Positions 4,149 through 27,400 of a DNA stretch of 64,000 nucleotides are shown piece after piece; position 1 is the stretch's first letter, and each line of letters begins with the position of its first letter. Origin of the DNA: Naegleria gruberi (taxonomy: Eukaryota); the NCBI GenBank assembly GCA_000004985.1, contig GG738858.1. The stretch is one strand, 5' to 3'. The position numbers and the translations under genes are program-made. The notes under the pieces are model-generated. The model was not told where the DNA came from. It did no database searches and worked only from the letters and a program-made list of their open reading frames with translations.

Positions 4149-5828
4149 TTATTGAGATGGAGTTGAAGGATTCAACCATGGTTTAGTCACTCTTGATACT
4201 GCCTTTTCAGATTGGAGGAAGGAGAGCAAGAGGCCATAATTAGTGATTGGAACACCTGCTTTGGATAGGTCAGAGAGACGGGCATTCATCTTTTGCTTAT
4301 CAATCATACATCCTCCACAGTGAATAATGAGTTTGTATTGGGAGAGATCCTTAATAAGCTGATACTCTCTGCCAAAGACAATATCCACCTTGATATTTCC
4401 CTGTCCAAATCTTTTTTCAATTGCTCTTGGTATTTGAACAGTACCGATATCATCTGCAATTCTGTTGTGATTACAAGCTTCACAGAGTAAGACTGAATCG
4501 CCTGGTTGGAGAGCTTTGAATGCTTCAATTCCTTTCAAAAATTCTGAAAGTCTTCCATTACTCATAAAGTTAATCATAATGACACTGAATGTAGTGATAT
4601 CAATAATACTCTCCTTTGTTGCCTCATCAATAGTCCATGGATGCACAATATCCATAGCTTGCGAGTCGGTAATTAAGAGTTGTAATTTTCCATTTGAATT
4701 AAGAGTTTTGATGGCTTCGAGGAATCTCTTCTTCTCCTTTTCCACAAGCTCCTTATCCGAACTTCTTGCATGTTTCAAATTCATTCTATATGAAAATACA
4801 TTGCTATACTCCCTGAGTAAATATTCATGAACCATGGCTTGAGGTTTGAGTAATCTACCAGATGGTGTCTCCTCATCCATTGGAATATTCAAAAATACAG
4901 TAGAGTTTTCCATTAAATTTGGAAGTAATCTTGTTGGATACATTGGAGTAGAGCTTGCCTTCATTTTACTCTTCTTGTGGCAATCTTCAATGAACTTGAT
5001 ACATTTGGTGTGAGCAATTTTTGATTCCAAATCCACACATGTAGTTCCACAGAAGTACTTATTCATTTGAACATTTCCCTGTTGCTCAAATTCATTGACT
5101 TTCAAATCAGTTTCAATCGAATCCAGCTTATCACTCAAACTCTCCACAGATGATCTCTTCAACTCGGAAACATTGAATATAATACAGAATGGTCTTTCAT
5201 TCTTTTCACACTCACCAGTCAACCATTTGGCTTGTTGAACACTGCTACCATTGAAAGGATCCACCACTACAACCACAATATCGGACTCTTTAAGGGCAAT
5301 CAGTGTTTTTTGTCTCTTCTTTTCGCCAAGATCTGATGCCTCATCAGTACCTGGTGTATCAAATAACTTTGTTGGACCAATACCGTGCAACTCCATAGTT
5401 GTCATCTTTACATCAGCAGTTGTACCAGGTGTAGAATCCACAATACTAGTATTTGAATTGGTCAAACAGTTCATCAGAGTTGATTTTCCACTATTCATAG
5501 CTCCAACAATTGCAATATTTGTCCTTTCAATGTAAATCGAGCCAATATTATTAGCACTATCACTTAAACTCACTCCAGAATGGAATAATTGTTTAGAATT
5601 CATTGAAAATTCCTTCATCATTATCTTTGTATTCATCATCATTTTCCATTCCGATGATCTTTTCACAGCTGATAATAATGGAAAATCCAACAATGAATTA
5701 CATTGTTGTATTGGCAATGATCTCCTCACAAGAGGTGAGGAACACAATGTTCGGATCAAGTGTTGTTGATGTGATTTCATTTTTTTAAAGTGCTTTTTCA
5801 TAAAACTAACCTTTTTAGTAACTTTCAT
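4149..5828 (-). CDS. hydF: HydF-type [FeFe]-hydrogenase maturation GTPase
   Basis: GTPase motifs G1 GAMNSGKST, G2 TPGTT, G3 DTPG. C-terminal FeS-cluster signature LLCEACNHN ...(45 aa)... IIHCGGC matches HydF CxHx(44-53)HCxxC. About 90-aa basic S/R/L-rich region precedes the GTPase domain (possible organellar presequence; true start may be an internal Met of the 5828 ORF). Confidence 0.85.
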   Translation of the reverse strand: MKVTKKVSFMKKHFKKMKSHQQHLIRTLCSSPLVRRSLPIQQCNSLLDFPLLSAVKRSSEWKMMMNTKIMMKEFSMNSKQLFHSGVSLSDSANNIGSIYIERTNIAIVGAMNSGKSTLMNCLTNSNTSIVDSTPGTTADVKMTTMELHGIGPTKLFDTPGTDEASDLGEKKRQKTLIALKESDIVVVVVDPFNGSSVQQAKWLTGECEKNERPFCIIFNVSELKRSSVESLSDKLDSIETDLKVNEFEQQGNVQMNKYFCGTTCVDLESKIAHTKCIKFIEDCHKKSKMKASSTPMYPTRLLPNLMENSTVFLNIPMDEETPSGRLLKPQAMVHEYLLREYSNVFSYRMNLKHARSSDKELVEKEKKRFLEAIKTLNSNGKLQLLITDSQAMDIVHPWTIDEATKESIIDITTFSVIMINFMSNGRLSEFLKGIEAFKALQPGDSVLLCEACNHNRIADDIGTVQIPRAIEKRFGQGNIKVDIVFGREYQLIKDLSQYKLIIHCGGCMIDKQKMNARLSDLSKAGVPITNYGLLLSFLQSEKAVSRVTKPWLNPSTPSQ

Positions 5829-5971: not shown

Positions 5972-7462
5972 TTAGAAGGATAGGTTGAGAATGGATATTT
6001 CTGGTGGGCAGAATAATCGAAGAGGATAATGACTTCCTAAACCAGCAGAGGTGTGAATAAATTGTCTCCTCTCGATTTTGTAAGTTCTGTAAATGAGTTT
6101 GATTTGATAATCATCAGCCGAGTCGACTACATCAATATTTCTAGCTTGTTGTTTGTGATGATGGAGCACACTGTCGATGAGTGTAGAATCGTCCTGCAAT
6201 CTCAATTCATATAGACCAACTCCCCATTCCCAATACTTGCAAACATTCAATAGTCTTTGAACAATTCTCAATCCACTAATTCGTTGCCTTACAAATTTCC
6301 ACAGAGTAACCTTCTTGTAAATGAAAATAATTATTGGAATTATAGGAAGGTAGGTGAATATTCCTTCATTCATCTGATGAACCTGTTCATAGGAAAAATG
6401 ATGTTGAACAAAATGATCAAATGTTGCTTCCTTTACACTAAGTTTCCAAAAGAGTCCTAGTACGTTTTTCAGAATTATTGAAGGTATTGGTAATGTCACT
6501 TGGCCACCTAAATATTTGATAAATGAAATATGTTAAATATGTTAAAATTTAAAGAAAATATCGAACATACCATGAGTGTGTCCACACAAAACCAAATCAA
6601 AATGGAAAACGTCATTCTTAATCCAAGCAACAGTGTCTGGGTTGTGGCTCAATACAATTCTCAAAGTATTCTCCTTGATAGGACTCTCGTTCATTTCCTT
6701 TACAATTTTATGATAATTATCCCAATAGAGTGGACTGTAAAAATCTAAAAATCCCCACAACTCAATATCAAACTTGAATTCCTTAGTTTCCTTTGTAACT
6801 TTAGCAAAGAATTGATGATTATTAGCTTTTGAACCAGCATCTAATATTGTGACAGCTCTTGATAATTTTTTGATTACCTCCTCCTTATCGAGAGGATGGG
6901 TCTTACTCTCATCATGATTTCCTAACACTGCAAAAACTCCCAACTCTGAATATTTTGATAATTTAGAGAAGAAATTATCCACAACCCAATCCACATCAAC
7001 CTTGTAAAATTTATCAACAAAATCTCCAGTCAATACTATCATGTCAATATTTGGAATGTATTCAATTTCCACAAGAATATCCTTCAATTGTTGTTTGCTA
7101 ATCTTATGATATCGAACGTGTCGTCTCAACCAATACCAACAAGCCCAGATTTTAGTATAATACGAACCTGCTGATCCCAACCAATCTGGAGGATCTGCAT
7201 AATAATCAAAATGAAAATCAGTCAAATGTAATATTTTCAGTCGGCGTCTATTTACATGATTAGTTTTCAAGAAGGAAATTGCATCTACATCAGACAAATT
7301 AATATAATGTTCCTTGATATATAATTTACTAAACACATTCAACAATGGAAAGGTAATCCACTTGAATAATTGTACCAAAATTATTAAATATTCATATAAC
7401 AACATTCCGATCACTGATAAAAACGTTATGTTTCCATGTTTCTGCTTTGATAGTTTTTTCAT
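5972..7462 (-). CDS. Calcineurin-like metallophosphoesterase with N-terminal transmembrane segments (YkuE/TMPPE-like), 2 exons
   Basis: Motifs LHLTDFH, VLTGDFVD, VLGNHDE, LCGHTHG. Exon 1 7462-6571, exon 2 6507-5972. Splicing turns GHTHG|...|GQ into the canonical GHTHGGQ. Two hydrophobic helices at the N-terminus (LSVIGMLLYEYLIILVQLF). Confidence 0.8.
6508..6570 (-). other. Spliceosomal intron (63 nt, GTATGT...TTTAG), phase 1
   Basis: Donor immediately after CAT G; acceptor followed by GT GGC CAA, giving HG-GQ. Confidence 0.8.
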
Positions 7463-9221: not shown

Positions 9222-11465
9222 ATGCAAAACCTTCCTCTTGCTTCTTCATCTGTCGATTCAAATAATCTAGTGCTAGTCATGAACGGAAATCCAACCACCA
9301 CGACAACAAGCACCACTACAAATAACAATAGTAGTGTCAACAATAGGCAAACTCCACAACAACCATTATTTATGAACCCTTCCCAATCCTTCCTTCCAAA
9401 ACAGCAACAACAACAACAAAACATGCCACAACAACAACCAATAATATTCTTCCAGAACCACCTCATGCCTCAAACACAAAATTCTCTCCCAACTACAAAC
9501 GGTGCAAACTCTACAAGTAGTACACCAGTAGCATCTAATGCATCAAATACGAGCACCTCTCAGAATGGAGAGAATGTTGTAGATGTGGAAAACTTTGCCA
9601 AATTCCAACAAGAGCAAGCAAAACAATTCAGTTTATTTCAACAACAACAAGCTGCTGCCTTCTTACATTTGGCCATTCAACAAAAACAATTGGAAGTCGC
9701 CCAATTCGCTAGTGCCATGAATATGCCGCTTCCAAATAGCTTCCTTATACCTAATAACAACACATCTACCAATTTCCATCCTGGAGGTCTTGTAAATTCG
9801 CAACCTATTTTCATTCCAAATAGTCATAATCCAGTCACACCTTTTGACCAGAATTCACCAATGAGTGAATCCATCCTAAGTTCTAGCCCATCCAACATGA
9901 CGGGTTTACATCATGTACATCACGCAGCTTCCTCCTCCTCAGATTTTGACGCTGAATCAACAGCTGCATCAGTAAGTGATAAGAGTCAAGTCTTATTATC
10001 CAACCAACGAAGAACAGGTCCTGTAAGAAGGTCCAGAAAAGGAGGTTGGTCAGAGGAAGAGGATGAAATGCTGAGAGCTGCAGTACAAACATATGGAGGG
10101 AAGAATTGGAAAAAGATTGCGGAAACACTTCAAAATAGAACTAGTGTGCAATGTTTGCACAGATGGCAAAAAGTATTAAATCCAAACCTTGTAAAGGGAC
10201 CTTGGACAAAGGAAGAGGATGACAAGATTTTACAACTTGTTAAAACATATGGTCCAGAAAATTGGAGCATGATCGCATCACATTTACCAGGAAGAATTGG
10301 TAAACAATGTAGAGAAAGATGGTACAATCACTTGGATCCTAGTATAAAGAAGGAACCTTGGACAGAGGAAGAAGAAACACTTCTTCTCGATGCTCAAAGT
10401 AAACTTGGAAATAAGTGGGCTGAAATTTCCAAACTCATCGTTGGACGTACAGATAACGCTTGCAAAAACCATTTCAATTCACTGATCGCTAGGGAAAAGA
10501 AGAAGGATACAACTAAAGAGACATCAAAATCAACAGAGCCAACACCAGTAAGAAAAACCAAAAAGACAACAAAGAAGGAAGATTCTGCTCTCAGTCGTGC
10601 CAGACACAAGAGATCAATCTCCGATACAGCATTCTATCAAAACTATCAATATGAATCGAGAGATTCTGGTACATTGACACTTTCTCCAATGGCTCAATCT
10701 AATAATTCCACTGGTTCTGGAGGAAACTCTCCAAATGCCAATAATTTGCACCATGCAAACAACAACACACTTTCAACCAACCACTTTTTCTCGAATTTAG
10801 CTCCTCCTACTCTCTTCCCATTCAATAGCAACCACATGATGATGCAAAACCCTAATTTAATGCAACAAAATGTAATACCAATCTTTAGACACAACAATGT
10901 ACAAAAACAACCACTACCAGCTTCTCAGAACGCATTTACACAGAATAACATCATTCCAAACATTGATATTTCCTCACCTGGTCTTTCGACACCAACAGAT
11001 CTCTTCCATGATTTGTCAGCTTTTGAGGCAGTGGTTCCTTCTAATAATAATAACAATGGAAATGGAGATGTAGATGTACTTGCAGATGTTCAAGATACAC
11101 TAATCAATCAAGTTGGTTCTGGGTTGATAAATAATTTCGATGTATTCGAAGCTCATGAAAGTGAAGTTTTAATACACAGCGAAGATAGTAACGATGAAAT
11201 GAACATTACACCAACACCTGGATCAAGGAATAGACCATCAACAGTTTTTAATGAAGATATGGACTTTAATGAATTTGATGGAGAATCAGATCTCAATAAT
11301 TTCCTGGATGATGATAACAATGATGATCAAATCAATAGCGGCCTATTCCCAATTCCTTTTGCTGACAGAGAAACCAAGAGAAAGAAGTTTAATCACGTTT
11401 TTCATAACAGATCGATATCATTCGATGTTTCCCAGTTAGGACAAAATAAGGACTTTTTCCTTTAA
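9222..11465 (+). CDS. R1R2R3 (c-Myb-type) Myb transcription factor with N/Q/T-rich flanking regions
   Basis: ATG 9222, TAA 11463-11465. Three consecutive Myb repeats with regularly spaced Trp: KGGWSEEEDEMLRAAVQTYGGKNWKKIA..., KGPWTKEEDDKILQLVKTYGPENWSMIA..., KEPWTEEEETLLLDAQSKLGNKWAEISK... Coding CAA/ACA/AAC low-complexity tracts. Confidence 0.85.
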   Translation: MQNLPLASSSVDSNNLVLVMNGNPTTTTTSTTTNNNSSVNNRQTPQQPLFMNPSQSFLPKQQQQQQNMPQQQPIIFFQNHLMPQTQNSLPTTNGANSTSSTPVASNASNTSTSQNGENVVDVENFAKFQQEQAKQFSLFQQQQAAAFLHLAIQQKQLEVAQFASAMNMPLPNSFLIPNNNTSTNFHPGGLVNSQPIFIPNSHNPVTPFDQNSPMSESILSSSPSNMTGLHHVHHAASSSSDFDAESTAASVSDKSQVLLSNQRRTGPVRRSRKGGWSEEEDEMLRAAVQTYGGKNWKKIAETLQNRTSVQCLHRWQKVLNPNLVKGPWTKEEDDKILQLVKTYGPENWSMIASHLPGRIGKQCRERWYNHLDPSIKKEPWTEEEETLLLDAQSKLGNKWAEISKLIVGRTDNACKNHFNSLIAREKKKDTTKETSKSTEPTPVRKTKKTTKKEDSALSRARHKRSISDTAFYQNYQYESRDSGTLTLSPMAQSNNSTGSGGNSPNANNLHHANNNTLSTNHFFSNLAPPTLFPFNSNHMMMQNPNLMQQNVIPIFRHNNVQKQPLPASQNAFTQNNIIPNIDISSPGLSTPTDLFHDLSAFEAVVPSNNNNNGNGDVDVLADVQDTLINQVGSGLINNFDVFEAHESEVLIHSEDSNDEMNITPTPGSRNRPSTVFNEDMDFNEFDGESDLNNFLDDDNNDDQINSGLFPIPFADRETKRKKFNHVFHNRSISFDVSQLGQNKDFFL
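9285..9470 (+). repeat. Coding ACC/ACA/CAA low-complexity tract (poly-T/N/Q) inside the Myb gene
   Basis: Runs such as accaccacgacaacaagcaccactaca and caacaacaacaacaaaac; produces the spurious poly-Cys ORF 9179-9466 on the opposite strand. Confidence 0.7.
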
Positions 11466-11466
11466 T

Positions 11467-12035
11467 TTACAATGAATAAAGGAATGGAGTATACCTCTTA
11501 TAAGTAATACTATCAGGTGGTCGTTTCTCTCTATCAGCCATATAGATTGAAAACTTTCTAGGAATACCATATTTCAGTGCATGACGATCTCCTTCCTTCC
11601 ACATATCCAATGCATATTTACCAGCTTCTAATTCATTTAAAATTAAATAGGGACTAAAATCATCTTTGGTTGCTTCAAAATGTGCTCTCAATGTCTAAAA
11701 TCAAAAGTATCAATAATTTTTAAATTATTATTCCAATCATCCAATAATAGCAATTAATATTATAAATATTAATTCAAATAATTATTATCAATTCCGAAAT
11801 TTAATTTACAAAATAAATCCAATTTGATATATACCTGTTTGCTAACTTCCCTCACAGCAAGAGGAAGTGTTTTATTCAATTGTCTAATCCACTCCCGATA
11901 CAAAGACAAAACCTTTGGCTTTGAATATTGTTCCACAAATAAATCCACATCATTTCCGAATGATTTTAATAATTTCCTCCTCTGAAAACTTCTCCGTATC
12001 TGATTAGGAATTGTATAGAATTCAAATCTTGGCAT
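11467..12035 (-). CDS. LYR-motif protein, NDUFA6/B14-like (mitochondrial complex I accessory subunit), 2 exons
   Basis: Exon 1 12035-11835 carries the LYR motif (KVLSLYREWIRQL). 140-nt intron. Exon 2 11694-11467 (TLRAHFEATKDDFSPYLILNELEAGKYALDMWKEGDRHALKY...) resembles the NDUFA6 C-terminal region. 142 aa total. Confidence 0.55.
11695..11834 (-). other. Spliceosomal intron (140 nt, GTATAT...TTTTAG), phase 0, very AT-rich
   Basis: Donor right after ...AAA CAG; acceptor TTTTAG followed by ACA TTG AGA. Confidence 0.6.
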
Positions 12036-12147
12036 TTTTAAATAATTTTTTTGATTTTTTAATAATTTTCAAAAGGAATTTAAATTTGGAACGAAAGAAA
12101 TCGGAGTTCAATTATAATTAAAATTTTCAAGAATACATTACAAAAAA

Positions 12148-12474
12148 ATGCAACCACATGATTCTCCTCGGATAGAGGAAGAAGAACCAATTCTTGAGAT
12201 GAATCGGCAACGTTTTCTATCAAGTAATGATGAAAATTCTTCATCTTTTCAAAATATTGAAAATATTGAAGATGGAAACCAAATTAATTCAACTCCAAAA
12301 ATAGATAATTTTCAAATGGAAACTTGTACAACTTGTAATAGAAATAATTGTAACAAGAATTCAATTTTAAAAATTCCAAAAATTAAAATTGTAAAGGAAA
12401 ATTTTGAACAATTACAAAATTGGATGTTTATTCACCATCCGAAACTCTATCATGTGATTGATGAAACTTGGTGA
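12148..12474 (+). CDS. Hypothetical small acidic protein (108 aa)
   Basis: ATG-initiated ORF in otherwise ORF-poor AT-rich DNA, divergent from the LYR gene; no recognisable domain. Confidence 0.3.
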   Translation: MQPHDSPRIEEEEPILEMNRQRFLSSNDENSSSFQNIENIEDGNQINSTPKIDNFQMETCTTCNRNNCNKNSILKIPKIKIVKENFEQLQNWMFIHHPKLYHVIDETW

Positions 12475-12802
12475 TACTTGAAGAATGCATTTATTTGTTT
12501 CTTTTTTGTTCCTTTAATTATTGTTGCCATTATTGTAGCGGTAATAATTTTGATTTTCAAGAATTAAACGAAACTTTAGAATTGGAAAATTGAGACGTGA
12601 CAAAGAATGAATTGAAAATCATTGTGAGATACTTTCATTGAAAATTCTTACACAATTCACCTTTTGAAATTCAATTTCTAATAGATTCCAACAAGTTTCT
12701 TCTCAAATAAATTGCATTCTTTTTCTGTAACTATTCTTCATATGAAAAACATCATTTCTCAAATGATTTTACAAAATTTATTACAAAAATATCTTTAAAA
12801 AA

Positions 12803-14329
12803 ATGTTTCAACATCTCGACAATGACTCCCTCGCAAATATTATGAATTTTCTCAGCCTTTTTGATGTGATTGAAAACTTGGCGTTGGTAAATTCGCGTCT
12901 TTTCCGTTTGATGAACTTGGAAAATGATCATCAAGGAACCATTACGAATTTATTGATGGAAAGAATTTTATTCTCGGAAGAGGAGATGGATCTGATTGGA
13001 ATGTTGAATAGATTGGAGAGGGCTGTGTGTTTTGAGTCTCTTCTGAGTGATTTGGAGAGGGAGGTTGTTGATTGTGGTGTTTTGAAGGAGATTTTTGAGA
13101 GGAATAAATATGAGGAGGTTTCAGTGAAGGAGTGTGTGAAGGGGATGGATTGGAAGAGAGTCGTTAGGATTGAGAAGTATGATGAATTGAGGATTTGTGT
13201 GGAGCTGGGGCGGAGATTAGGCTATTTGGATGCATGTTGGTTGTATGAAAATCAAAAAATAGGGAGGAAACCTTTCCAATTGTTTTATAGTCATGAAATG
13301 GATGGTTACTCTGAAGGTAATCTATTATTTCTAGATTTTCTGCAACTGGTTAAGGCATATGAATTGTCAATGGATAAGATTTACAAAATTCACCTCTACT
13401 TTGTCAATAATCAACTAAAAATCTCGAAAATAGTTTCTCGAGCAAGAGAGGGACAAAAATTAACTGAAAAGGAAATTTTAGTGAAGGATTACAAGTATTT
13501 ATATGAAAAAATGTTGGGATATAGTGGAATTGTTGGTACACTGGACTTGAAAGTGCTCTCTTACCAAGAAGGTGTAGAAAACAATGTTACTATTTCAACT
13601 GTGGATATTCAATCTGCAAAAGTTTATAGAAGCACTTGCTGTACTCTCAGAAATGGTGAGACTAATGTTGGTCAATTATTCGCAGTCAACCAATTTTTCG
13701 ATGCCATTTCAAGACCAACTAAATGTGGAGATTTGAGACTTTCCCAAAAAGGAGACATCACACTGTGGACTATTTCAAGACAGGAAATAAGGAAAATGAT
13801 TAGACCTTTTGTAATTTATCCAGTGTTGTATTTTCCATTAGCAATATATTCACATTTCAAGTTTGTGAATTATGACTTTGGATGGAATGAGACACAAGTT
13901 CATCCATATCTCCACTTTTTCGATTGTTTGGTTTTCACTTTTTTGAGCTTGGTTGGAATAGATAACTTGACAATTAGAATTCGTAGGATTCCCAGAAATG
14001 ATGCCATAATTATGTTGTTGTGCACTTTAGGAATATTTCTTGTCAAGTTAACTATTTGTATATTTGGAACGAGCCACCCACTTCGATCCTTCATTAACAC
14101 CTTTTCATTCTCTGCACCATTCATCCTCTCCAGTGTACCATTCATTTATGGATTAAATTTATATCCAAAGGCATTGTTCTGGTATTGGAGATCAACCAAT
14201 TGGTTCTATAATAATATAGTTGTGAAAAAAACAGGTGGATTTTTGAGGAAATGTGTGGATTGGATTACAAATTATTATTCCTTAAATGGTGTTCAGCATG
14301 ACAGTTCAACTCGTTGCGCAATTAATTAG
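12803..14329 (+). CDS. F-box-like protein with C-terminal multi-pass membrane region (hypothetical)
   Basis: N-terminal F-box-like helix pattern (LANIMNFLSLFDVIENLALVNSRLFRLM). C-terminal third contains 4-5 hydrophobic helices. 508-aa uninterrupted ORF. Confidence 0.55.
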   Translation: MFQHLDNDSLANIMNFLSLFDVIENLALVNSRLFRLMNLENDHQGTITNLLMERILFSEEEMDLIGMLNRLERAVCFESLLSDLEREVVDCGVLKEIFERNKYEEVSVKECVKGMDWKRVVRIEKYDELRICVELGRRLGYLDACWLYENQKIGRKPFQLFYSHEMDGYSEGNLLFLDFLQLVKAYELSMDKIYKIHLYFVNNQLKISKIVSRAREGQKLTEKEILVKDYKYLYEKMLGYSGIVGTLDLKVLSYQEGVENNVTISTVDIQSAKVYRSTCCTLRNGETNVGQLFAVNQFFDAISRPTKCGDLRLSQKGDITLWTISRQEIRKMIRPFVIYPVLYFPLAIYSHFKFVNYDFGWNETQVHPYLHFFDCLVFTFLSLVGIDNLTIRIRRIPRNDAIIMLLCTLGIFLVKLTICIFGTSHPLRSFINTFSFSAPFILSSVPFIYGLNLYPKALFWYWRSTNWFYNNIVVKKTGGFLRKCVDWITNYYSLNGVQHDSSTRCAIN

Positions 14330-14690
14330 GAAATTTACAAATATTGAAATTACAGTTTACAAAAAAGTTAGTGAGTGAAGGTAGTTTCGATCTACCACCT
14401 TAGAATCTACCAAGCTTCCTATGTTCTCCCATTTAAACTATTCACCCACAAATTCTTTTCTCTACATAATTCAAGCTTTATCCTAAAGTTCATCTATAAA
14501 TAGAGATGGTTTTGGTTTTGGATTAAATTTATAAAAAGAATGACAAGATAAATTGTTTGATATGAGAATATTGATATTTATTTGGTTACCAATAAGAGGT
14601 ATTGAATATTACCCAAAAAAAACAAAGTTTACAAAAAATGATAATATTTCAATACTATTGATTGTAATTAATATTGAAACGAATGATGAT

Positions 14691-14849
14691 TTACCAACCA
14701 GCTGGTTTACTACAAGTTGGACATTTCAAACCAACTTTTCCAGATGGAGAACTTTTACATCCAGGGCAAACTCTGTGGGAACAACCATTCTTACAAGAAA
14801 TTGAAGATAAAGTTGAAGCATTGAAACTACACCACTCACACTTGGCCAT
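14691..14849 (-). CDS. Mini RING-HC-type zinc-finger protein (52 aa), copy A; not in ORF track (<60 aa)
   Basis: ATG 14849-14847, TAA 14693-14691. Protein MAKCEWCSFNASTLSSISCKNGCSHRVCPGCKSSPSGKVGLKCPTCSKPAGW. Cys/His spacing C-x2-C-x15-C-x1-H-x2-C-x2-C-x11-C-x2-C fits the C3HC4 RING consensus. 51/52 aa identical to copy B. Confidence 0.55.
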   Translation of the reverse strand: MAKCEWCSFNASTLSSISCKNGCSHRVCPGCKSSPSGKVGLKCPTCSKPAGW

Positions 14850-15351
14850 TTCGAAAATATTTCTTTTGATTTTTGGGTTAATAACAAAACAGTTGAATTG
14901 TTTTTTTGTTTGGTGGAAAATGAAATCATGCAGTTGGTTGGCCTATTTATTGTATTTGTTGTTGGAAAGTTATTGGAAACAATCTCTTTGGAACAGGTCT
15001 GAACTTGGATTTTGAGCCACATTTCAATGAAAACACGTGTTGCAAGAAAAGTTCATGACCATCAATTTAATGTTCAGTATTTGTTCATGGTCACGACTGG
15101 ATCTTCAAGATCATAAAAGTTTCGAATAAATCCATGTTGTGTCCATTCTTGATAGTTAACCAATCAATGCAAGAGGGCTATTTAAATTGTAAAACGAAAA
15201 TAAATGGTGAAATAATACTATTCACTCACTGACTCCCTGAAACAATTCTAATATCTCATCATGCAAAATATCTTTCGAATAAATTGAGTTGATCCACAAC
15301 CAATTTCTCAAAACAAATCAAAAAAACAATTCTAAACAATCATTAATCAAA
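14850..15351. promoter_or_regulatory. Shared 502-bp divergent promoter region between the two inverted mini-RING genes
   Basis: Head-to-head arrangement. Both 5' flanks contain a CAAAAAAACAATTC motif about 40-55 nt upstream of the ATG. Confidence 0.35.
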
Positions 15352-15510
15352 ATGGCCAAGTGTGACTGGTGCAGTTTCAATGCTTCAACTTTATCTTCAA
15401 TCTCTTGTAAGAATGGTTGTTCTCATAGAGTTTGTCCTGGATGTAAAAGTTCTCCATCTGGAAAAGTTGGTTTGAAATGCCCAACTTGTAGTAAACCTGC
15501 TGGTTGGTAA
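15352..15510 (+). CDS. Mini RING-HC-type zinc-finger protein (52 aa), copy B
   Basis: ATG 15352, TAA 15508-15510. MAKCDWCSFNASTLSSISCKNGCSHRVCPGCKSSPSGKVGLKCPTCSKPAGW. Same C3HC4 spacing. The ORF track extends it upstream with a non-ATG start. Confidence 0.55.
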   Translation: MAKCDWCSFNASTLSSISCKNGCSHRVCPGCKSSPSGKVGLKCPTCSKPAGW

Positions 15511-15663
15511 AATTGACCAACTCAAGTTGGAATCTTTCGTTTTTTTGCTAAAGTTTCTTTTTTTTTTCGATATTTCAGATTCCCTTATTCTAATAGTTTA
15601 CATTCCAATAAATGCAACAAATTTAAACTAATGTTTCCATAATAAGAATTATATTTAATGAAT

Positions 15664-16611
15664 TTAGTATACGCATTCTTTCAATGATTTTCCATATTTA
15701 CGCAATTGATTAAAGATTCTAATCAATTGTTCACAATCTTCAATCTTTGGCAATTGATTTCCAGTTTCAAAAGTTGCCGTAGTTTTCTTGGCATCACCAA
15801 CCTCCTCACTGTCCATAATCTTTCCAAAATATTCTCTACTCTGCATCAATTTATCTTCCCATTTGTCTGCGAATGAGCTCACTTCTTTACTTTTTAGGCA
15901 AGAGTTCATGGCCACAGGGATAGCCACACTGCATCCAACTGCCATGGCCACACCAACTCCAGCCACAATAGGAACTCCCACAAAAGCACCAATAAATGTA
16001 GTAATTGCAGCAATTCCCAATCCAACTAACCCAACCAAGGACACAATTCCCAAAATAATGCATGCCCAAAAGTATTTCTTTGCTTTGGCTCTCAGAATAT
16101 TCTCAATATGATTCACAGAAGATTCAAGAGTGCTTCTATACCGTGGATGTGTAATCAGTTTCAAATGATCATGAATTACTGTCATTCTCTTCACATAGGA
16201 TTCCTGGTTGACTTGGTTGAAAATGTCCTTAAATAGCTCAACACCCATTTCACCAATTTCAATAAGGAAATTTCCATGTAACAATATAGCATAAATAGCT
16301 TCCCTAAATGATTCTCTTTCACTTTCTTTCAGAAACAAGTAACAATCCTTAATGCATTTACTCATTTCTTGCTCAGTCGATGAAAAATCTTGTTTTTCCA
16401 TTTCGTCTGCAATTTCTTTCAAATCTTTCTTGTCGTCGTTGTTGTCATTATGAATTGGCTTGTTCTCATTGCTCAGGTCTATATTTTGCCAGGTTTCAAT
16501 GTAGACGTAATCGTCCAAGATGTCAAAACAATCGACAATGTCAAGGCAAGTTTGTTGAGTTTCTTCTGGTTTCTGATTGGAACTATCTTTCTTTGTGTGC
16601 CGTTGACCCAT
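15664..16611 (-). CDS. N-myristoylation-motif protein with C-terminal glycine-zipper membrane hairpin, paralog A (unknown family)
   Basis: ATG 16611-16609. MGQRHT (Gly2, Thr6 = N-myristoylation consensus). Helical N-terminal ~190 aa, then ILGIVSLVGLVGLGIAAITTFIGAFVGVPIVAGVGVAMAVGCSVAIPV (about 48-aa GxxxG-rich hairpin), then ~70-aa tail. 315 aa. Paralog of 17947-18894. Confidence 0.75.
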   Translation of the reverse strand: MGQRHTKKDSSNQKPEETQQTCLDIVDCFDILDDYVYIETWQNIDLSNENKPIHNDNNDDKKDLKEIADEMEKQDFSSTEQEMSKCIKDCYLFLKESERESFREAIYAILLHGNFLIEIGEMGVELFKDIFNQVNQESYVKRMTVIHDHLKLITHPRYRSTLESSVNHIENILRAKAKKYFWACIILGIVSLVGLVGLGIAAITTFIGAFVGVPIVAGVGVAMAVGCSVAIPVAMNSCLKSKEVSSFADKWEDKLMQSREYFGKIMDSEEVGDAKKTTATFETGNQLPKIEDCEQLIRIFNQLRKYGKSLKECVY

Positions 16612-16968
16612 TTACTTGAATTGCCGTTTTTTTTGAAAATATTAATGGAGTTGTGGCACAGATATTTATTCGAAACGTGAATTGACAATTGATTTTCTCT
16701 CAATCACTTGTTTGTCTCAAACTTGTAAATTTCTGCTACGATAGAAGGAGGTACATTAATTCTACTCCTATCCTTAAATGACAAGATGTTGGAATGTGCT
16801 AAAAAACGTGATCATTCTTTACAATTTTAACAAGATTCGAAACTTTCCATTGGGTAAAGACTAAATATAAAAAGACTGCAGCTCCACAAATTACCAAGTT
16901 ATCTCCAACCTCTTGAAATATTGAAATTTTGAATCGATTCAATTCTATCTTAAATATTGTAAAAAAAA

Positions 16969-17904
16969 ATGAGTAAACGAAACAGACAAGATTTCGAATA
17001 TATTAAATTAATTACCAATTCGGAGGAAATATTCACGGAAGAGAAAGCAAAAGCTATGAAACTGCACCACCAACAACACGAAGATAATGACATATTTTCC
17101 GATGATATTTGCTTTGAAATAATTTCCATGCTTGATGATTCGTGGTTTATTCTAAATAATTGCACTTTAATTTCAAAACAATTCTGTCAGGTGATCAAGG
17201 AACGCTCTAAACTAGTTATTCAATTTAAAAAACCATTGACAGAGAGACGAGTTGAATTATTAAGGAAAAGTCAATTTATGAATTGTATTGTTAATGTTAA
17301 ATTTAATGAAATGTTGTTGGAATTGAGAGAAAATATCAAATTTATAAGTGAAATGAAACAATTAACATCACTTGATGTTTCTGACAATGAAATTGGAAAT
17401 GTAGGAGCTAAACATATAAGTGAAATGAAACAATTAACATCACTTAATATATGTAATAATCGAATTGGTGATGAAGGAGCTAAATTCATAAGCGAAATGC
17501 AACAATTAACATTACTTGATATTTCTGATAATCATATTGGTGATAAGGGAGTTAAATTTATAAGTGAAATGAAACAATTGACATCATTCAATATTTCTGA
17601 TGATCTAATTGGTAATGTAGGAGCCAAATCTATAAGTGAAATGCAACAATTAACATCACTTGATGTTTCTGATAATCATATTGGTGATAGTGGAGTAAAA
17701 TTCATCAGTGAAATGAAACAATTAACATCACTCAATATTGCTATCAATCGAGTTGGTGATGAAGGAGCCAAACTCATAAGTGAAATGAAACAATTAAGAT
17801 CACTTAATATTTCTGACAATGAACTTGGTGATGAAGGAGTCAAATTCATAAGTGAAATGAAACAATTAAGATCAAATTGTTTGGGTATTGTACAGCAGAA
17901 TTGA
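16969..17904 (+). CDS. F-box-like / RNI-type leucine-rich-repeat protein (FBXL-like)
   Basis: ATG 16969. N-terminal F-box-like segment (DDICFEIISMLDDSWFILNNCTLISKQFCQVI) followed by about 8 near-identical 24-aa LRRs (ISEMKQLTSLDVSDNEIGNVGAKH...). Confidence 0.85.
   Translation: MSKRNRQDFEYIKLITNSEEIFTEEKAKAMKLHHQQHEDNDIFSDDICFEIISMLDDSWFILNNCTLISKQFCQVIKERSKLVIQFKKPLTERRVELLRKSQFMNCIVNVKFNEMLLELRENIKFISEMKQLTSLDVSDNEIGNVGAKHISEMKQLTSLNICNNRIGDEGAKFISEMQQLTLLDISDNHIGDKGVKFISEMKQLTSFNISDDLIGNVGAKSISEMQQLTSLDVSDNHIGDSGVKFISEMKQLTSLNIAINRVGDEGAKLISEMKQLRSLNISDNELGDEGVKFISEMKQLRSNCLGIVQQN
17338..17880 (+). repeat. Tandem 72-bp coding repeat (about 7.5 copies, more than 85% nt identity) encoding the RNI-type LRR array
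   Basis: Repeated ataagtgaaatgaaacaattaacatcact...ggtgat/ggaaat...ggagctaaa units visible by eye. Confidence 0.85.
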
Positions 17905-17946: not shown

Positions 17947-18894
17947 CTAAATGACACATTCTTTCAATGCTGTTCCATACTTGCTCAATTGATAAAAGAT
18001 ATTAATCAAGTGTTCACATTCTTCAATCTTTGGCAACTTGTTGGCATTTTCATAATCCTTGGTGGTCTTTTCAGCTCTGGTAAATTCTGAACTTTCCATT
18101 GCATTCTTAAAACATTGTTTGCTTTCCATCAATTTATCTTCCCAATTGCCTGCGAATGAACTGACTTCAGTGGCTTCCATGCAAGAGTTCATGACCACAG
18201 GAATGGCCACACTGCATCCAACTGCCATGACCACACCAACTCCAGCCACAATAGGAACACCCACAAAGGCACCAATCACTGTTGTAATTGCAGCAATTCC
18301 CAAACCAACCAAACCAACCATGGACACAACTCCCAAAATAATACTTGCCCAAAAGTATTTCTTTGCTTTGGCTCTCAGAATATTCTCCATATGTTTAATG
18401 GAAGTTTCAAGTTTAGTTAAATATTTGGCATTGTCAAAGTAATCTTCCCAAAACTTGTAAATTGCATTCATTCTCTTTTCATATGATCCTTGGTTGACTT
18501 GATTTAAAATATCAGTAAATAGTTCAACTCCCAATTTACCAACTTTAATAAGGTGATTGCCATGGAGAACGATATTTTCAATTGCCTTGTAAAATGGTTC
18601 TCTCTCACTTGGTTTTAGAAACAGATAACAATCTTGAACACATTTTTGGATTTCGTTTTGAGTTTCAAAAATGTCAGTTTTTTGCAATTCTTTGGAAATT
18701 TCCTTCAAATCTTTCTTGTTTTCTTTCAATTCAATATTTTGCCAATAGTTTTCTATATAAACTCGATTCTCAATCATGTCAAAACAATCAACAATGTCAA
18801 TACTCGTTGAAGAATCTGTTTCTTGAGCAAGTTGCTTGAGATTGAGAGATTGGTGAAGGCCTGTGTCCTTCTTTGTGGTTTGGCGTTGACCCAT
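17947..18894 (-). CDS. N-myristoylation-motif protein with C-terminal glycine-zipper membrane hairpin, paralog B
   Basis: ATG 18894. MGQRQT. Same architecture and length (315 aa) as paralog A. Hairpin ILGVVSMVGLVGLGIAAITTVIGAFVGVPIVAGVGVVMAVGCSVAIPV. Confidence 0.75.
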   Translation of the reverse strand: MGQRQTTKKDTGLHQSLNLKQLAQETDSSTSIDIVDCFDMIENRVYIENYWQNIELKENKKDLKEISKELQKTDIFETQNEIQKCVQDCYLFLKPSEREPFYKAIENIVLHGNHLIKVGKLGVELFTDILNQVNQGSYEKRMNAIYKFWEDYFDNAKYLTKLETSIKHMENILRAKAKKYFWASIILGVVSMVGLVGLGIAAITTVIGAFVGVPIVAGVGVVMAVGCSVAIPVVMNSCMEATEVSSFAGNWEDKLMESKQCFKNAMESSEFTRAEKTTKDYENANKLPKIEECEHLINIFYQLSKYGTALKECVI

Positions 18895-19337
18895 TGTTTT
18901 TGTTTTTTTAAAACGTGAGTTTTGTTAGAAACGTGAAACTCAAAACATATTTATTCGAAACGTGATGCGTGTGGTGTTGACCATCATGTCAATTTCTGGT
19001 ACGATAGTAGGTTTATTACAAATTTCTTGTTTTTAATTGGTGAGATGTAGGAGAATATTGTTTTCTTTCTCATCGACTGTGTAACCATTCAATTCGATTT
19101 GCTCCTTAGATCCACCAATATCATTATATGTAATTCCGCAGTCCTAATTGTAACACTGGCATCAATTTTTGGAGGGAGTGGAATACGAATTTGATATTTT
19201 GTACGATCAACACCAATACGTACCAGTTGCCATGAAAGGTATGAGCCTGAGCGAATTCTTCTCTCGATTATTTAACATTGAGTTTTCATAACAAATAAAA
19301 CTCAAATCAGAACTGTTTACTAATATTATTTTGAAAA

Positions 19338-21515
19338 TTAAAGTATTTTCTTTTCGAGTTGTTTGAGAATATTTTCGAGTAACTCAACAATTTTTGTGGT
19401 TCTGTTTTTGCACTTGGTTTCATCGAAATCTGAGAGATTAGTCAATTTCTTGACTTCGTTGTTGATATTCAATGGTTCCTTATTCAAGTATTTCAATCTG
19501 TTTTCATCTGTGGTATCCTTTGTGAATGATTTACCACATAGAGTAAAGTTACCAATTTGGAGATAGCAATTATCCATCTTCTTAGCCAATAATGGTTTGA
19601 TATTGCATAACTTGAGATTACGAGGATATTGCAAGTCGAAATTAGATGCATTCGGATCAGAAAGGAAGTCTTCAATGATTGGTAAAACAGTTGAGAAAAT
19701 CTTTTTAAGCTCATTACTTTGTTTCTTCTTTGATGGGGCAGTGCTGTCATTATTGGCTAATCTAATGATCTTCTTGCTCCATTGTGAATAATTGGATTCC
19801 TCACTGTCATCACTTGCCTTTTTGCCTCCCTTTTTCTTGCTCTTTGTCTTGGTCAATATGGTTGTGAGTTCCTTAAAATCAACAACTTTGTTGTTCAAAA
19901 GATTACTGATCTCAGCCATCATGTAAGAGAACTTGACCTTGGCAAAGTCACACAAGCAAACTTGGAGTACGTGATTGTGCCAAATTGCAATTAATTGCAA
20001 TACATCTGCTTCTTCAACCTTGGAACTGACATTATAGGTGAGAAAGTGTTGGCCATGTTCCTTGCAATGTGCAATAGCAATAAGAGTTGCTAGGACTATA
20101 TCTGAGGCCACTTTTTGTGCCTTTGGGAGGTAATTTTCAGCAATGTGGTGTGTTCTGCTGATCATCTTGTTAATAAGGTGATTCTTCTCATTATTAGTGG
20201 AGAATACAGGACGATTTGCTGAACTCTTTGATTGATGACCAATGAAAATAGGAGTCATGTAATTGTTCATGAAAGTTTCACCAAGATTTTCAATATTGAC
20301 AGTTGTCTTCATGTGGGAGGCAATTTGGTCAAGAAGTTTCAAATATTCTCTATTGCTAACATTCACATTCTTTGTTGGGTGTAGCAATTGATGAATGTTT
20401 TCAAGAATATTTGAGAAATCTTCGCCAACTTCTTGATACATGTGATTCCAAGAATCAACCATTTCTTGATTCTTTTGGTGATTGTGGCAACCAAATAATC
20501 TTCCAAAATCAAGCTTGAGTTTGTCCATTGGTGACAAATCCTTTCCTCTCAAATTCAAAGTACCAAAGATTGCTAGTTCATTAGCATGTTCTGGAACTGT
20601 AATGGTAACAACAATACAATTGTGACTCAAGAAGTGAATGAAATCAACCATTTCTTCTTGTTTCTTGAAAAGCTTTTTGATTTTAAGGATGGAATGCAAG
20701 AAGTTTTTGGCACAATTCATGGCAGAAGTGGAAGTAATCTCCTTTGCTTCTTCGAGCTTGGTGATTATTTCATCAACCTTGCTCTTCTTAAAGTCACCCT
20801 CGTCCATACTGGCCTTCTTTAAAATGTTAGCAAATCCCTTCTCTTCGACAATGTACTTTTTAAAGAATGTCTTTTCCTTTCCTGCTACACCTTCTTCATC
20901 ATTGCAAACCTCAATTCTTGCTTGACCTTTCAGAGTTCCCTTGTGAATCTTCAAGTAAACTTTGCTAATTGTCTCAAAATTTTCTTCATACTTTTTCTTA
21001 TTGATACATTCTCTGAGGGCAGAGTAAAGAATGGAGAGAGAGGTCAATCTTTGTTGACCATCTATTACTTGTTGTCTGTTACCTGCCTTTAGGACAATGG
21101 AGCCAATAAAGTAGCTGCTCTCTGGTTCATTCTTGTTATACTCATTGTAGACATCATCAAGAAGGTCCATAATGTTGTCGATCTCCCAAGCATAAGGACG
21201 TTGGTATTCAGGAATAGAATAGCACAATTCAAAAAGATTGTCAATTGCTCTATTGTTGGTGGTCAACTCCCAAGCTCTTCTTTCTGAGGCAACTATCTTT
21301 GGAGGAACAGGTGGACTGAATGTGAGTGGAGAATCTGTTGAAAATGGAAGAGAGGTATCACTCTTAGAGCTTGATGGAGTTGCTGGTTGTGAAGAAGAGG
21401 AAGGAGTACTGGCGATAATGGTTTGTTCCTTCTTGGTCTTCTTCTTGTCTTTCTTTGGGGTAATGTCAGAGCAGTCTCTGGTGTTTTTCTCTTCTTGTCT
21501 ACCCCCTTTGACCAC
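19338..21515 (-). CDS. DUF262 (GmrSD / ParB-like N-terminal domain) family protein with long C-terminal region; 5' end unresolved
   Basis: Hallmark DUF262 motifs IPEYQRPYAWE and SYFIGSIVLKAGNRQQVIDGQQRLTSL. S/T/P/K-rich N-terminal low complexity. C-terminal region with His-rich patches (THHIAENYLP, IAHCKEHGQH, IWHNHVL), possibly DUF1524/HNH-like. The 725-aa ORF has no ATG before the domain. An ATG at 21574 lies in another frame just upstream of a homopolymer at 21502-21506. Confidence 0.75.
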   Translation of the reverse strand: MVKGGRQEEKNTRDCSDITPKKDKKKTKKEQTIIASTPSSSSQPATPSSSKSDTSLPFSTDSPLTFSPPVPPKIVASERRAWELTTNNRAIDNLFELCYSIPEYQRPYAWEIDNIMDLLDDVYNEYNKNEPESSYFIGSIVLKAGNRQQVIDGQQRLTSLSILYSALRECINKKKYEENFETISKVYLKIHKGTLKGQARIEVCNDEEGVAGKEKTFFKKYIVEEKGFANILKKASMDEGDFKKSKVDEIITKLEEAKEITSTSAMNCAKNFLHSILKIKKLFKKQEEMVDFIHFLSHNCIVVTITVPEHANELAIFGTLNLRGKDLSPMDKLKLDFGRLFGCHNHQKNQEMVDSWNHMYQEVGEDFSNILENIHQLLHPTKNVNVSNREYLKLLDQIASHMKTTVNIENLGETFMNNYMTPIFIGHQSKSSANRPVFSTNNEKNHLINKMISRTHHIAENYLPKAQKVASDIVLATLIAIAHCKEHGQHFLTYNVSSKVEEADVLQLIAIWHNHVLQVCLCDFAKVKFSYMMAEISNLLNNKVVDFKELTTILTKTKSKKKGGKKASDDSEESNYSQWSKKIIRLANNDSTAPSKKKQSNELKKIFSTVLPIIEDFLSDPNASNFDLQYPRNLKLCNIKPLLAKKMDNCYLQIGNFTLCGKSFTKDTTDENRLKYLNKEPLNINNEVKKLTNLSDFDETKCKNRTTKIVELLENILKQLEKKIL

Positions 21516-24455: not shown

Positions 24456-27400
24456 TCAAACTTCTAATAAACTGTTAAAATCAATTGCCCTTCGGAATAT
24501 CTTGGAACCACTTTCAACAATTCTATTATTCTTATTCATTCGTTTTAGGAATTCAGTATTGTATCTTAATGAATAGTGAGCGTAACAAAGTGCTTCAATA
24601 TTGATATCCATTGCCTTTTCAATAAAATCTTCATCGGAAATAATTTCATAGGATGCAAGTTTAAGTGAAGTAACATCACTTTGTACAGCTTTCAATACTA
24701 TTTCAGGATCGTTTCTCATATCAAATGATGCATAACAGAAAGAATTAAACGATTTCCCCTGACCAGAAGCATACATTACACACTCCTTATCCCCAAGGAA
24801 TTTGTTGGATGCATACTGAAGTGCTTCTTCATGGTTTTGAACACATTTCAGGACGACATTTCTGTTATATGCAAACTTATGAGGCACATACTGTAAAACC
24901 TTTCCGTTAACTCCAGCACATTCTAAAATAAACTCTTCCTCATGCTGTAACTCTTCACTGGCAAACAGGAATGCAATAGCATCAGATTTGATAGCTTTTA
25001 ACATAATTTCTCTATCATTTTTGAATTCATGTTTCAACTCGTTAGACAAGTACATAATTGATCGACCATTAAGTTCCAGTGATTTTAAAGCAATTTCTCT
25101 GTCTTCCCTTAATGTAATTGGTATAAAAAGTATATCAAATTGCTTAGGTTCAATTTCTAAAATAAAGGTCCTATCTAGTCTAAGTCTATTCGAAACATAC
25201 ATAAGATTCATCATCCTAGCATTAACAGCTAAAAGGGCAAATTGTCTATCATCTCTAAAAGTATAATCAAATTCATTAAGAGACTTAATACTTAATGCTA
25301 TGGCAGCCATTTCCTTATTGAGAGGAAATGGGATGTTGAGATGTGGCGGTAACCATTTTCTTAACGCTTCCAACACTTCTCCATCACTTTTCATTTCTCC
25401 AGAGGCATAGCGATAACAGCTTGCTGAATATTTTAATCCTGTTAAAATTAATTCCTTGTCATTTTGCAAATCTTCTGATAGGTAGTTACATCCATGACGA
25501 ATTGCATTTAGAGCAATTTCTCTATCATTTCGCAAATATTTTGGAATATATTGAATCAAATAACCATTAATCCTAGTTAACTTCCTAATAAAATCAATAT
25601 TGTTCCTTAATCTTTCAGACACGTACTCGAAAGATGAAGCATTCTCTGAGAATGCAATTGCTTGCACTATTTCCTCCTCATCTCTGTATTCTTCTGGAAC
25701 ATATTTCAGAGGATGAGTATCATATCTGCAAGCTTCATAAACTATTTCTCTATCTAATTCTGATTCATTGATATTTCTTAAGCTCAATCCGTTTCGTACT
25801 GCAACGATTAACAATTCTCTGTCTTGTTGGAGAGAATGACTGGCGTATTTCAAGTTATTTCCATCTAATTGGACAGCCTCTAATACTATGTCTCTGTCTT
25901 GTTTGTATTCTTGTGGTATTTCTTCAATACTTCCAATTCTTCTTACGTATTCTAATATTAAATCTCTATCTTCCTTCAGACTATATCCCAAAAAGTCAGA
26001 TATATTTGACATTGAATTTCTAATTGCTTTTACAACAAAGTCTCTCGAATTTTTCCAAGATTCAGGAGCATACTCAAAGTAGCATCCGTCTCTACCTATT
26101 AAAAACTCTAGTATCTCCTTATCTGTTTTTAATTCTTCTGATGCATAATTATAATTACCAGTATCATATAAAAGTGCTTCCTGTAACAATGACTTATCAT
26201 TTTGCAATTCCGCTGATGCAAACTTTAGAGCTCCGTAATGTTCTTTTATCGCCAACCTGATTATTTCTCGGTCATTTCTTAACTCGTCGTTCAACGATTC
26301 TAAAATTTTACGATCTTGTAATATATAGTCCAATACTAGTTGTCTACTGTTTTTTAGTTCGCCCTTGCAATGTTCTAAGCATACAGGATCTATTCTAATA
26401 ATTCTCAACTGTCTTTCCTCATTAAGAGAATTGAAATAATCTTTAGAAGTCCACATTGCTGAACTATACTGACATTGAATATCAATTAGTTCATCAACAA
26501 AATCACTATGATTAACTAGAGACGAACCACCATAATCAAGAAAGCTTAATGAATTACCTGCTCCTGAAATGCATTCTAGAACGAATTCACGGTCATGAAT
26601 TAATTCTCGAGCGATTCTACTGGAGAATGCGCTAGAATTAACAGAAGAACCAAGCAATACAAGTTCCTTCACAAAACTTCTATCACTACAGAAGTAACCA
26701 TGATCCACATAATACAAAGCCATTCCATTAGATTTTACAGCCTCCATAACAATCTCTTTGTCTTTCTTCAGTTCTTTTGAAACATCCTTCAAACTGTCTC
26801 CTTTCATTTTTACAATTTGTAAAACAAACTCTCTGTCTGATCTTAATTTTTCAGACGCATACGAAAATGAAAACCCTGAATTTTTAGCAGCTAGTAAAAT
26901 AACCTCTTTGTCATTGGAAAATGTTGGAGCATGCTGGAGAACACACGAATATTTAGAATTCTTGATAGCTTCCATCACTATTTCTCTATCTTTTAAATGT
27001 TCTGGAACATACTCGATAACCAAACCATCTTGTTTCACTGCTTCCAACACAATATCTCTAGAATTTTTCAATTGGGATGAAGCAAATTTTAAACATTTTG
27101 GTTGTTGTTTGATAGCTAATTTCATTAATTCATCATCATTATGAAATTCTGGGAGATGTTCAAATAAAATTTCCTCATCATAATATAAGTTTGATTTCAA
27201 TTTTAACACTTTCAAGATAAATTCTCTTTGGCTTTTCAATTTCTTACCAACAAATTTAATTGCCGAATAATGTTCTCGAAGTGCTACCAAAGCAACAGTT
27301 TCATCATTTTGCAAATCCTCTGATGCATATTCTAATAATTGTCCTTCAATTTTAAGAGTTTTTAAAAAGGCTAATTTGCAATCATTGTCAGGAAATGGAT

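Follow-up and report, generated by a model that had tools for sequence, protein, structure and literature searches.

Two probable 52-codon genes with RING-like cysteine/histidine spacing form an inverted pair in Naegleria gruberi

RING domains present an E2-binding surface with a hydrophobic residue between the first and second zinc ligands (C1 and C2), another on a central helix, a proline after C7, and an arginine, lysine or asparagine linchpin after C8. RINGs of the BARD1 type are inactive on their own. RBX1/ROC1 and APC11 (84-113 aa) are small, RING-dominated modules within larger ligases; their RING-H2 comes with a third zinc site, and their N-terminal extension contributes a strand to the C-terminal domain of the cullin or of APC2. 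To our knowledge, no characterized RING protein is as short as 52 residues, APC11 having ~84 aa. At the level of DNA, gene conversion is common between inverted repeats. Tiny cysteine-rich proteins are also described in prokaryotes as the C(P)XCG mini-proteins, exemplified by HVO_2753 of Haloferax volcanii. Such zinc-finger proteins (PMC11241148), like small double zinc ribbons, have fewer than 70 aa and four close cysteine pairs, of which two are CPxC; they contain no further domain, and annotation easily misses them. PMC11241148 also cautions that, in archaeal mini-proteins, cysteine patterns can overstate metal occupancy, a matter that AlphaFold2 does not resolve.

The locus described here lies in a 64-kb window, the whole stretch of N. 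gruberi DNA that was analysed (33.8% GC, with many long intronless ORFs). Its neighbours, whose 3′ ends face each other across 1.33 kb, are a 508-aa ORF (12803-14329, + strand; no Pfam match) and a gene for a putative 315-aa membrane protein (15664-16611, − strand). As an earlier note on this DNA had claimed, two divergent mini-genes are found there, copy A at 14691..14849 on the − strand and copy B at 15352..15510 on the + strand, each with 52 codons and a stop. Copy A encodes MAKCEWCSFNASTLSSISCKNGCSHRVCPGCKSSPSGKVGLKCPTCSKPAGW, and the copy B protein is the same save for residue 5 (E in A, D in B), which confirms the reported identity of 51 of 52 residues. The peptides CEWCSFNASTLSSISCK and CDWCSFNASTLSSISCK are specific to copies A and B, respectively, and a further peptide is VGLKCPTCSKPAGW. 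The pair had been called invisible to an ORF track of at least 60 aa, which is not strictly so for copy B, where TTG starts give a 73-aa ORF (15289-15510). In most long ORFs of the window a run of 5-10 A directly precedes the ATG; in the mini-genes this run is shorter (gaaATG, aaaATG).

A repeat search recovered one long inverted repeat at this locus, with 165-nt arms that are 95% complementary and 492 nt apart. The left arm (14690..14854) consists of the coding sequence of copy A, 1 nt past its stop and 5 nt 5′ of its ATG, and the right arm spans 15347..15511. In an ungapped comparison, the copies are alike from ~5 nt 5′ of the ATG to 1-2 nt past the stop. The spacer between the divergent genes (14855..15346, 492 nt) presumably holds both promoters; it has neither an Rfam match nor a conserved ORF. 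Eight nucleotides differ over the 159 nt of coding sequence, seven of them synonymous third-position changes. The description of many differences as synonymous stands, with the correction that GAG versus GAC, cited as one such example, is the single non-synonymous change (E/D).

A third sequence was available for comparison. Among 5.8 billion protein clusters the only homolog was P0001, a protein of 52 aa with 92% identity, encoded on a 5.9-kb metagenome contig (L001). This contig is likely derived from an organism of the Naegleria clade, since the best named matches of the neighbouring 810-aa gene are in N. lovaniensis (42%) and N. fowleri (39%). It ends 362 nt 5′ of its mini-gene, so that the state of any second copy in that species falls outside its span. 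A HMMER profile search of 1.84 billion representative proteins returned nothing but P0001 at E<=0.001, and a viral scan for relatives gave no match. One locus from a scan of metagenome DNA was rejected as spurious. Exact look-ups of the copy A and copy B proteins found no record in any protein collection searched, and none of the entries from the homology search came from N. gruberi, N. fowleri or N. lovaniensis. The mini-genes are unannotated and absent from all protein collections searched. On the evidence of these searches the family has no detectable relatives beyond the metagenome copy, and it appears to be lineage-restricted and specific to Naegleria.

Regions around the gene for HydF were also retrieved from N. 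lovaniensis (L004) and Willaertia magna (L005). The HydF ORF of the window (4149-5828, −) matches the [Fe]-hydrogenase maturation protein of N. gruberi at 100% identity, with 79% identity in N. lovaniensis and 67% in W. magna. In L004 the Metallophos, HydF and three-repeat Myb genes are syntenic with the window, and synteny breaks after Myb (window 9222-14329 versus L004 1-7701). The adjacent N. lovaniensis DNA, represented by L004 only, contains neither the mini-gene pair nor the 508-aa ORF nor the 315-aa genes, an absence that covers just the HydF-adjacent segment, as synteny ends before the neighbours of the pair. Two window ORFs, 5972-6499 (−) and 6542-7462 (−), both map onto the 472-aa N. 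lovaniensis Metallophos gene (L004 8443-9919); these are probably two exons of one gene with a ~42-nt intron, or the result of a frameshift.

The silent differences had been read as purifying selection on the peptide, and the substitution analysis bears this out. Between copies A and B, Nei-Gojobori estimates gave dS 0.25, dN 0.008 and omega 0.03, and at least seven synonymous changes out of eight would arise by chance with P = 1.2e-4. Against L001, dS was 0.44-0.49 and omega 0.07-0.10, with 11-12 of 16 differences synonymous (P=6e-6), and 48 of the 52 residues are invariant across A, B and the L001 protein. When the A-B differences were polarised with L001, four private changes fell on each lineage: three synonymous changes and D5E in copy A, which has no frameshift or stop, and four synonymous changes out of four in copy B. 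The binomial estimate of P under neutrality was ~0.03 for copy A and ~0.002 for copy B. Because the changes so polarised are three synonymous and one conservative in A and all synonymous in B, each copy appears to be under constraint on its own.

The reading frame is delimited by similar comparisons. Of the six frames, the sense frame alone is uninterrupted in all three of A, B and L001. Codon statistics are just as good for the antisense frame, whose ORF spans copy A with 113 aa, but a stop interrupts it in B and in L001. In-frame stops stand immediately 5′ of the ATG in L001, which excludes a longer N-terminus and indicates that the ORF makes up the whole gene, as opposed to one exon of a larger one. 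Codon-usage scores were 0.31 bits per codon for copy A and 0.24 for copy B. Long ORFs in the window score 0.18-0.47, a range that includes both copies, and both exceed the short-ORF mean of 0.08 +/- 0.15. Given the selection on the peptide, the sole open sense frame and the confinement of homology to the interval between start and stop codons, copies A and B are very probably real, selected, single-exon protein-coding genes.

Each protein contains nine cysteines and one histidine. The potential ligands are C4, C7, C19, C23, H25, C28, C31, C43 and C46, and the ligand span of 43 residues leaves nine others. The earlier note proposed a complete C3HC4 RING, and the spacing does fit: the consensus C-x2-C-x(9-39)-C-x(1-3)-H-x(2-3)-C-x2-C-x(4-48)-C-x2-C matches residues 4-46, a fit seen in 2 of 200,000 composition-preserving shuffles. 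The same residues also match a pattern of C4 knuckle pairs in sequence (C-x2-C-x11-C-x3-C, then C-x2-C-x11-C-x2-C), again with 2 of 200,000 shuffles. Judged by ligand spacing, the sequence fits two sequential C4 zinc knuckles as well as it fits a RING-HC. Spacing patterns for RING-H2, PHD, FYVE, B-box, ZZ, MYND, zf-HIT, RanBP2 and RBR-IBR did not match.

Membership of the RING family, the other part of that proposal, received no significant support from profiles or structure. With RING profiles, the best match, PF14835 zf-RING_6 (BARD1-type; E=0.086), scored 13.2 bits where the Pfam gathering cut-off is 35, and the L001 protein scored 12.2 bits with the same profile. A phmmer search of the PDB returned mostly RING domains (BARD1, RING1B/RING2, BRE1, TRIM32, TRAF6), together with the Slp4 FYVE-like and TAF3 PHD domains, all non-significant at E>=0.6. 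Among the weak matches, only RING domains (zf-RING_6, and BARD1, RING1B/RING2 and BRE1 in the PDB) are full-length with the cysteines in register. Searches with the L001 protein and with the C-terminal half gave zf-Mss51 (0.07-0.16), Zn_ribbon_FGT1_2 (0.17), YacG (0.27) and zf-RING_4, with E between 0.07 and 0.4 and all far below cut-offs. The N-terminal half had no match in the profile search, and the mini-protein had none in NCBIfam. The two AlphaFold models were unreliable (pLDDT 52-53); these low-confidence models contain a beta-hairpin at residues 6-9/17-20 and no helix, and fold searches with them found no match. "Mini-RING" seems a reasonable label for the Cys/His spacing; as a claim of membership of the RING family it is partly supported, not demonstrated.

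Compared with RING-HC domains of the BARD1 type, the mini-protein likewise has eight canonically spaced ligands, a C-x-H-x2-C-x2-C segment and a final CPxC. It differs in a score far below threshold, in having neither flanking helices nor a predicted central helix, and in lacking a linchpin, while the extra Cys19 permits another topology. Read from the sequence, the features that favour a RING are C-x-H-x2-C-x2-C, a valine before C5, Trp6 between C1 and C2, and CPTC in final position among the ligand pairs; Pro44 follows C7. The residue after C46 is serine (glycine in L001), as opposed to the arginine, lysine or asparagine of a linchpin. The C-terminal half, CPGC-x11-CPTC, resembles an ordinary small zinc ribbon.

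We tentatively favour a RING-like, non-catalytic binding module, and two other readings of the protein have to be set beside it. In one, the product would be a double zinc-knuckle or zinc-ribbon mini-protein, with C4/C7/C19/C23 and C28/C31/C43/C46 as the two sites and H25 not a ligand, that would bind nucleic acid or protein and have no role in ubiquitin biology. This appears somewhat unlikely. Both halves share C-x2-C-x11-C, the predicted models offer a hairpin and not the helix of a RING, and the C-terminal half weakly matches Zn_ribbon_FGT1_2 (E=0.17), YacG (0.27) and zf-Mss51 (0.16), but none of these zinc-ribbon matches is significant, and NCBIfam, which is rich in prokaryotic zinc-ribbon models, is silent. 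Such mini-proteins are a documented class, and the C(P)XCG proteins (PMC11241148) resemble the N. gruberi product in size, in their four close cysteine pairs with two CPxC, and in containing no further domain. They differ in being prokaryotic and in not being known to carry the C-x3-C pair and the embedded C-x-H, and no profile match connects the two. The closing pair of the first knuckle-like unit, which is C-x3-C and not C-x2-C, also speaks against this reading, as does C23-x-H25-x2-C28-x2-C31, a RING hallmark whose His25 is invariant among the three sequences, as 48 of the 52 residues are. The other reading, in which a minimal RING E3 would act autonomously, or a catalytic subunit of the RBX1/APC11 kind would recruit and activate an E2, possibly together with F-box or UBC-F-box proteins of the region, is considerably less probable. 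In its favour are the fit to the C3HC4 consensus, Trp6 at the usually hydrophobic, E2-contacting position between C1 and C2, Pro44 after C7, and a UBC-F-box fusion gene in the window (29328-31457). Against it, the linchpin position holds serine or glycine, no central helix is predicted, and the closest weak match is to the BARD1 type. The suggestion of an RBX-like module fared no better: the mini-protein resembles RBX1 and APC11 in being small, but with a single histidine it does not have the RING-H2 pattern, only Met-Ala-Lys precedes the first cysteine, leaving no cullin-binding strand, and HMMER detects no sequence similarity. The F-box genes lie at least 14 kb away, and neither a cullin nor Skp1 was found in the window.

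The genomic surroundings had been invoked for a ubiquitin connection. The UBC-F-box fusion does exist, at 29328-31457 (+), with scores of 51 bits for UQ_con and 30 bits for F-box-like. Its 709-aa product is an unusual E2-F-box fusion, with UQ_con at residues 31-139 and the F-box at ~314-350. The description of the window as rich in F-box proteins went too far: an F-box match turned up in 2 of the 30 scanned ORFs, and one of the two, in a 1739-aa ankyrin protein, is below the Pfam threshold. The scan of these 30 ORFs revealed no cullin, Skp1 or RING protein, and no functional link emerged between the mini-genes and the UBC-F-box or F-box genes.

Several other features of the neighbourhood can be recorded. 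The 315-aa gene beside copy B has a paralog at 17947-18894 (−), in the same orientation and 60% identical. Both products have a Gly/Val/Ala-rich hydrophobic stretch resembling a membrane segment, without a solid Pfam match, and a gene for an LRR_6 protein (16969-17904, +) lies between them. A 725-aa ORF (19338-21515, −) has a GmrSD_N domain (the N-terminal domain of DUF262-type restriction endonucleases; E=4e-32) and could have been acquired from bacteria. A 1056-aa protein (24456-27626, −) consists of 22 DUF4116 repeats (E=3e-185), and two G-protein alpha subunit genes are found within 4 kb of each other (16-1086 and 2904-4124, both +).

Outside the coding sequences the two copies have little in common. 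The earlier note held that the duplication included the promoter. A common upstream motif was confirmed, and the statement is true for at most a 19-20-nt element, not for a wider promoter. Upstream similarity between A and B is limited to CAAA(T)CAAAAAAACAATTC, with a score reached by 1 of 300 shuffles. In the 64-kb window CAAAAAAACAATTC has exactly two occurrences, one 5′ of each copy, both in the orientation of the gene. In copy A the motif region is ACCAAACAAAAAAACAATTC (14895..14914, −), part of a 20-nt inverted repeat with 90% identity, and in copy B it is ACAAATCAAAAAAACAATTC (15313..15332, +), with the same position and sequence in L001 (ACCAATCAAAAAAACAA). Its 14-nt core lies at -59..-46 in A versus -34..-21 in B, 25 nt farther from the ATG in A. 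Downstream, a T-rich patch lies at +38..+76 of copy A (14615..14652, −) and at +16..+55 of copy B (15527..15565, +), an offset of 22 nt. This similarity of ~40 nt was reached by 2 of 300 mononucleotide shuffles and, in such low-complexity sequence, is weak evidence; the patches are possibly an element of the 3′ end.

The upstream region of copy B (15187..15346, +) is instead collinear with L001 201-354 and has no counterpart at copy A. The alignment, over ~170 nt, scored 51, a value that none of 300 shuffles reached (highest score 34), and it includes the block ATAAATGGTGAAATA (15200-15214, +), exact in L001 at 218-232, which lies ~140-150 nt 5′ of copy B and has no second exact copy within the window. 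The 12-mer TTTCGAATAAAT occurs exactly four times in the 64 kb, all inside 4 kb: at 15273-15284 (+), which is -79..-68 of copy B, at 15120-15131 (+), at 16664-16675 (−) and at 18949-18960 (−). Two of these point at copy B, and the 12-mer also stands ~55-65 nt 5′ of the ATG of each 315-aa paralog; it is absent at copy A. With at most one mismatch there are seven matches versus 1.8 expected, a number reached by 0 of 100 shuffles. This 12-mer may be a cis-regulatory element common to a locally co-regulated cluster.

The coding sequences and flanks therefore tell discordant histories: site groupings in the coding sequence (12 A=B, 4 B=L001, 4 A=L001) place A with B, whereas the flanks place B with L001. 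For homology limited to the coding sequence, the best explanation is either an older duplication with later gene conversion between the inverted copies or a duplication of only ~250 bp followed by indels in the flanks, because the flank motif and the T-rich patch alone are common and both are displaced by indels. High coding identity that collapses at the borders is likewise seen in inverted paralog pairs homogenised by gene conversion, but in the mini-genes a ~250-bp duplication with later flank indels would look alike.

Two further readings concern the copies themselves. Copy B alone might be functional, copy A being a duplicate with little promoter sequence that is decaying into a pseudogene. 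Copy A does not have the ~170-nt upstream region common to B and L001 nor the TTTCGAATAAAT element, the only amino-acid change (D5E) falls on its lineage, and homogenisation by gene conversion would keep it intact without selection. Yet it is intact, it retains the A-rich motif and an A-rich start context, and since the split from B (dS 0.25) it has gained three synonymous changes and one conservative change, a pattern with P ~0.03 under neutrality; decay of copy A is accordingly a very unlikely account. More improbable by far is an element acting as nucleic acid, whether as a foldback element, a terminal-inverted-repeat element or a locus for hairpin RNA, with arms that would be open by chance. 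A read-through transcript of 14680-15520 would form a near-perfect stem of ~165 bp (-372 kcal/mol, z=-30), but such a stem is trivially true of any inverted repeat. The substitutions sit at third codon positions in one frame only, the arm ends coincide with start and stop codons, and L001 keeps a single arm with its upstream region. The genes also point outward, so that their own transcripts are not self-complementary, and there is neither a target-site duplication beside the arms nor an Rfam match.

In the RING-like reading that we favour tentatively, the product of each copy would be a cytosolic protein of 52 aa, with little beyond a single cysteine-rich module for binding metal. Zinc binding is probable. 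Two zinc ions could be held in a RING-like cross-brace, by C4/C7 with C28/C31 and by C23/H25 with C43/C46, leaving C19 spare; this topology is a plausible if uncertain proposal, and sequential knuckles are a rather more doubtful one. The product might then be a small module that binds without catalysis, pairing or competing with another RING protein or binding E2s weakly. We infer a non-catalytic module and not a self-sufficient, substrate-targeting E3 because the protein lacks any further domain, no central helix is predicted, and serine or glycine occupies the linchpin position. Two divergently transcribed copies could provide higher dosage or separate regulation. Any link to ubiquitin is unlikely, and a genuine E3 or E2-activating function decidedly more so. 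The boldest version, a true free-standing 52-residue RING acting in trans on the Naegleria ubiquitin system, where it would either be a minimal activator of E2s or cap E2s or RING partners as a decoy, from a gene pair kept identical by gene conversion, strikes us as a long shot.

None of these outcomes would overturn current understanding or introduce a new kind of system. The mini-gene pair is a concrete example of how the public N. gruberi gene set misses conserved, selected genes of fewer than ~60 codons. If the product is a true RING, it would offer a minimal model for what RING folding and E2 engagement require. If it is a true double zinc knuckle, it would extend to a eukaryote a class of tiny zinc fingers studied mostly in archaea and bacteria. 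In either case, the pair would be a clear, small example of homogenisation limited to the coding region between inverted paralogs.
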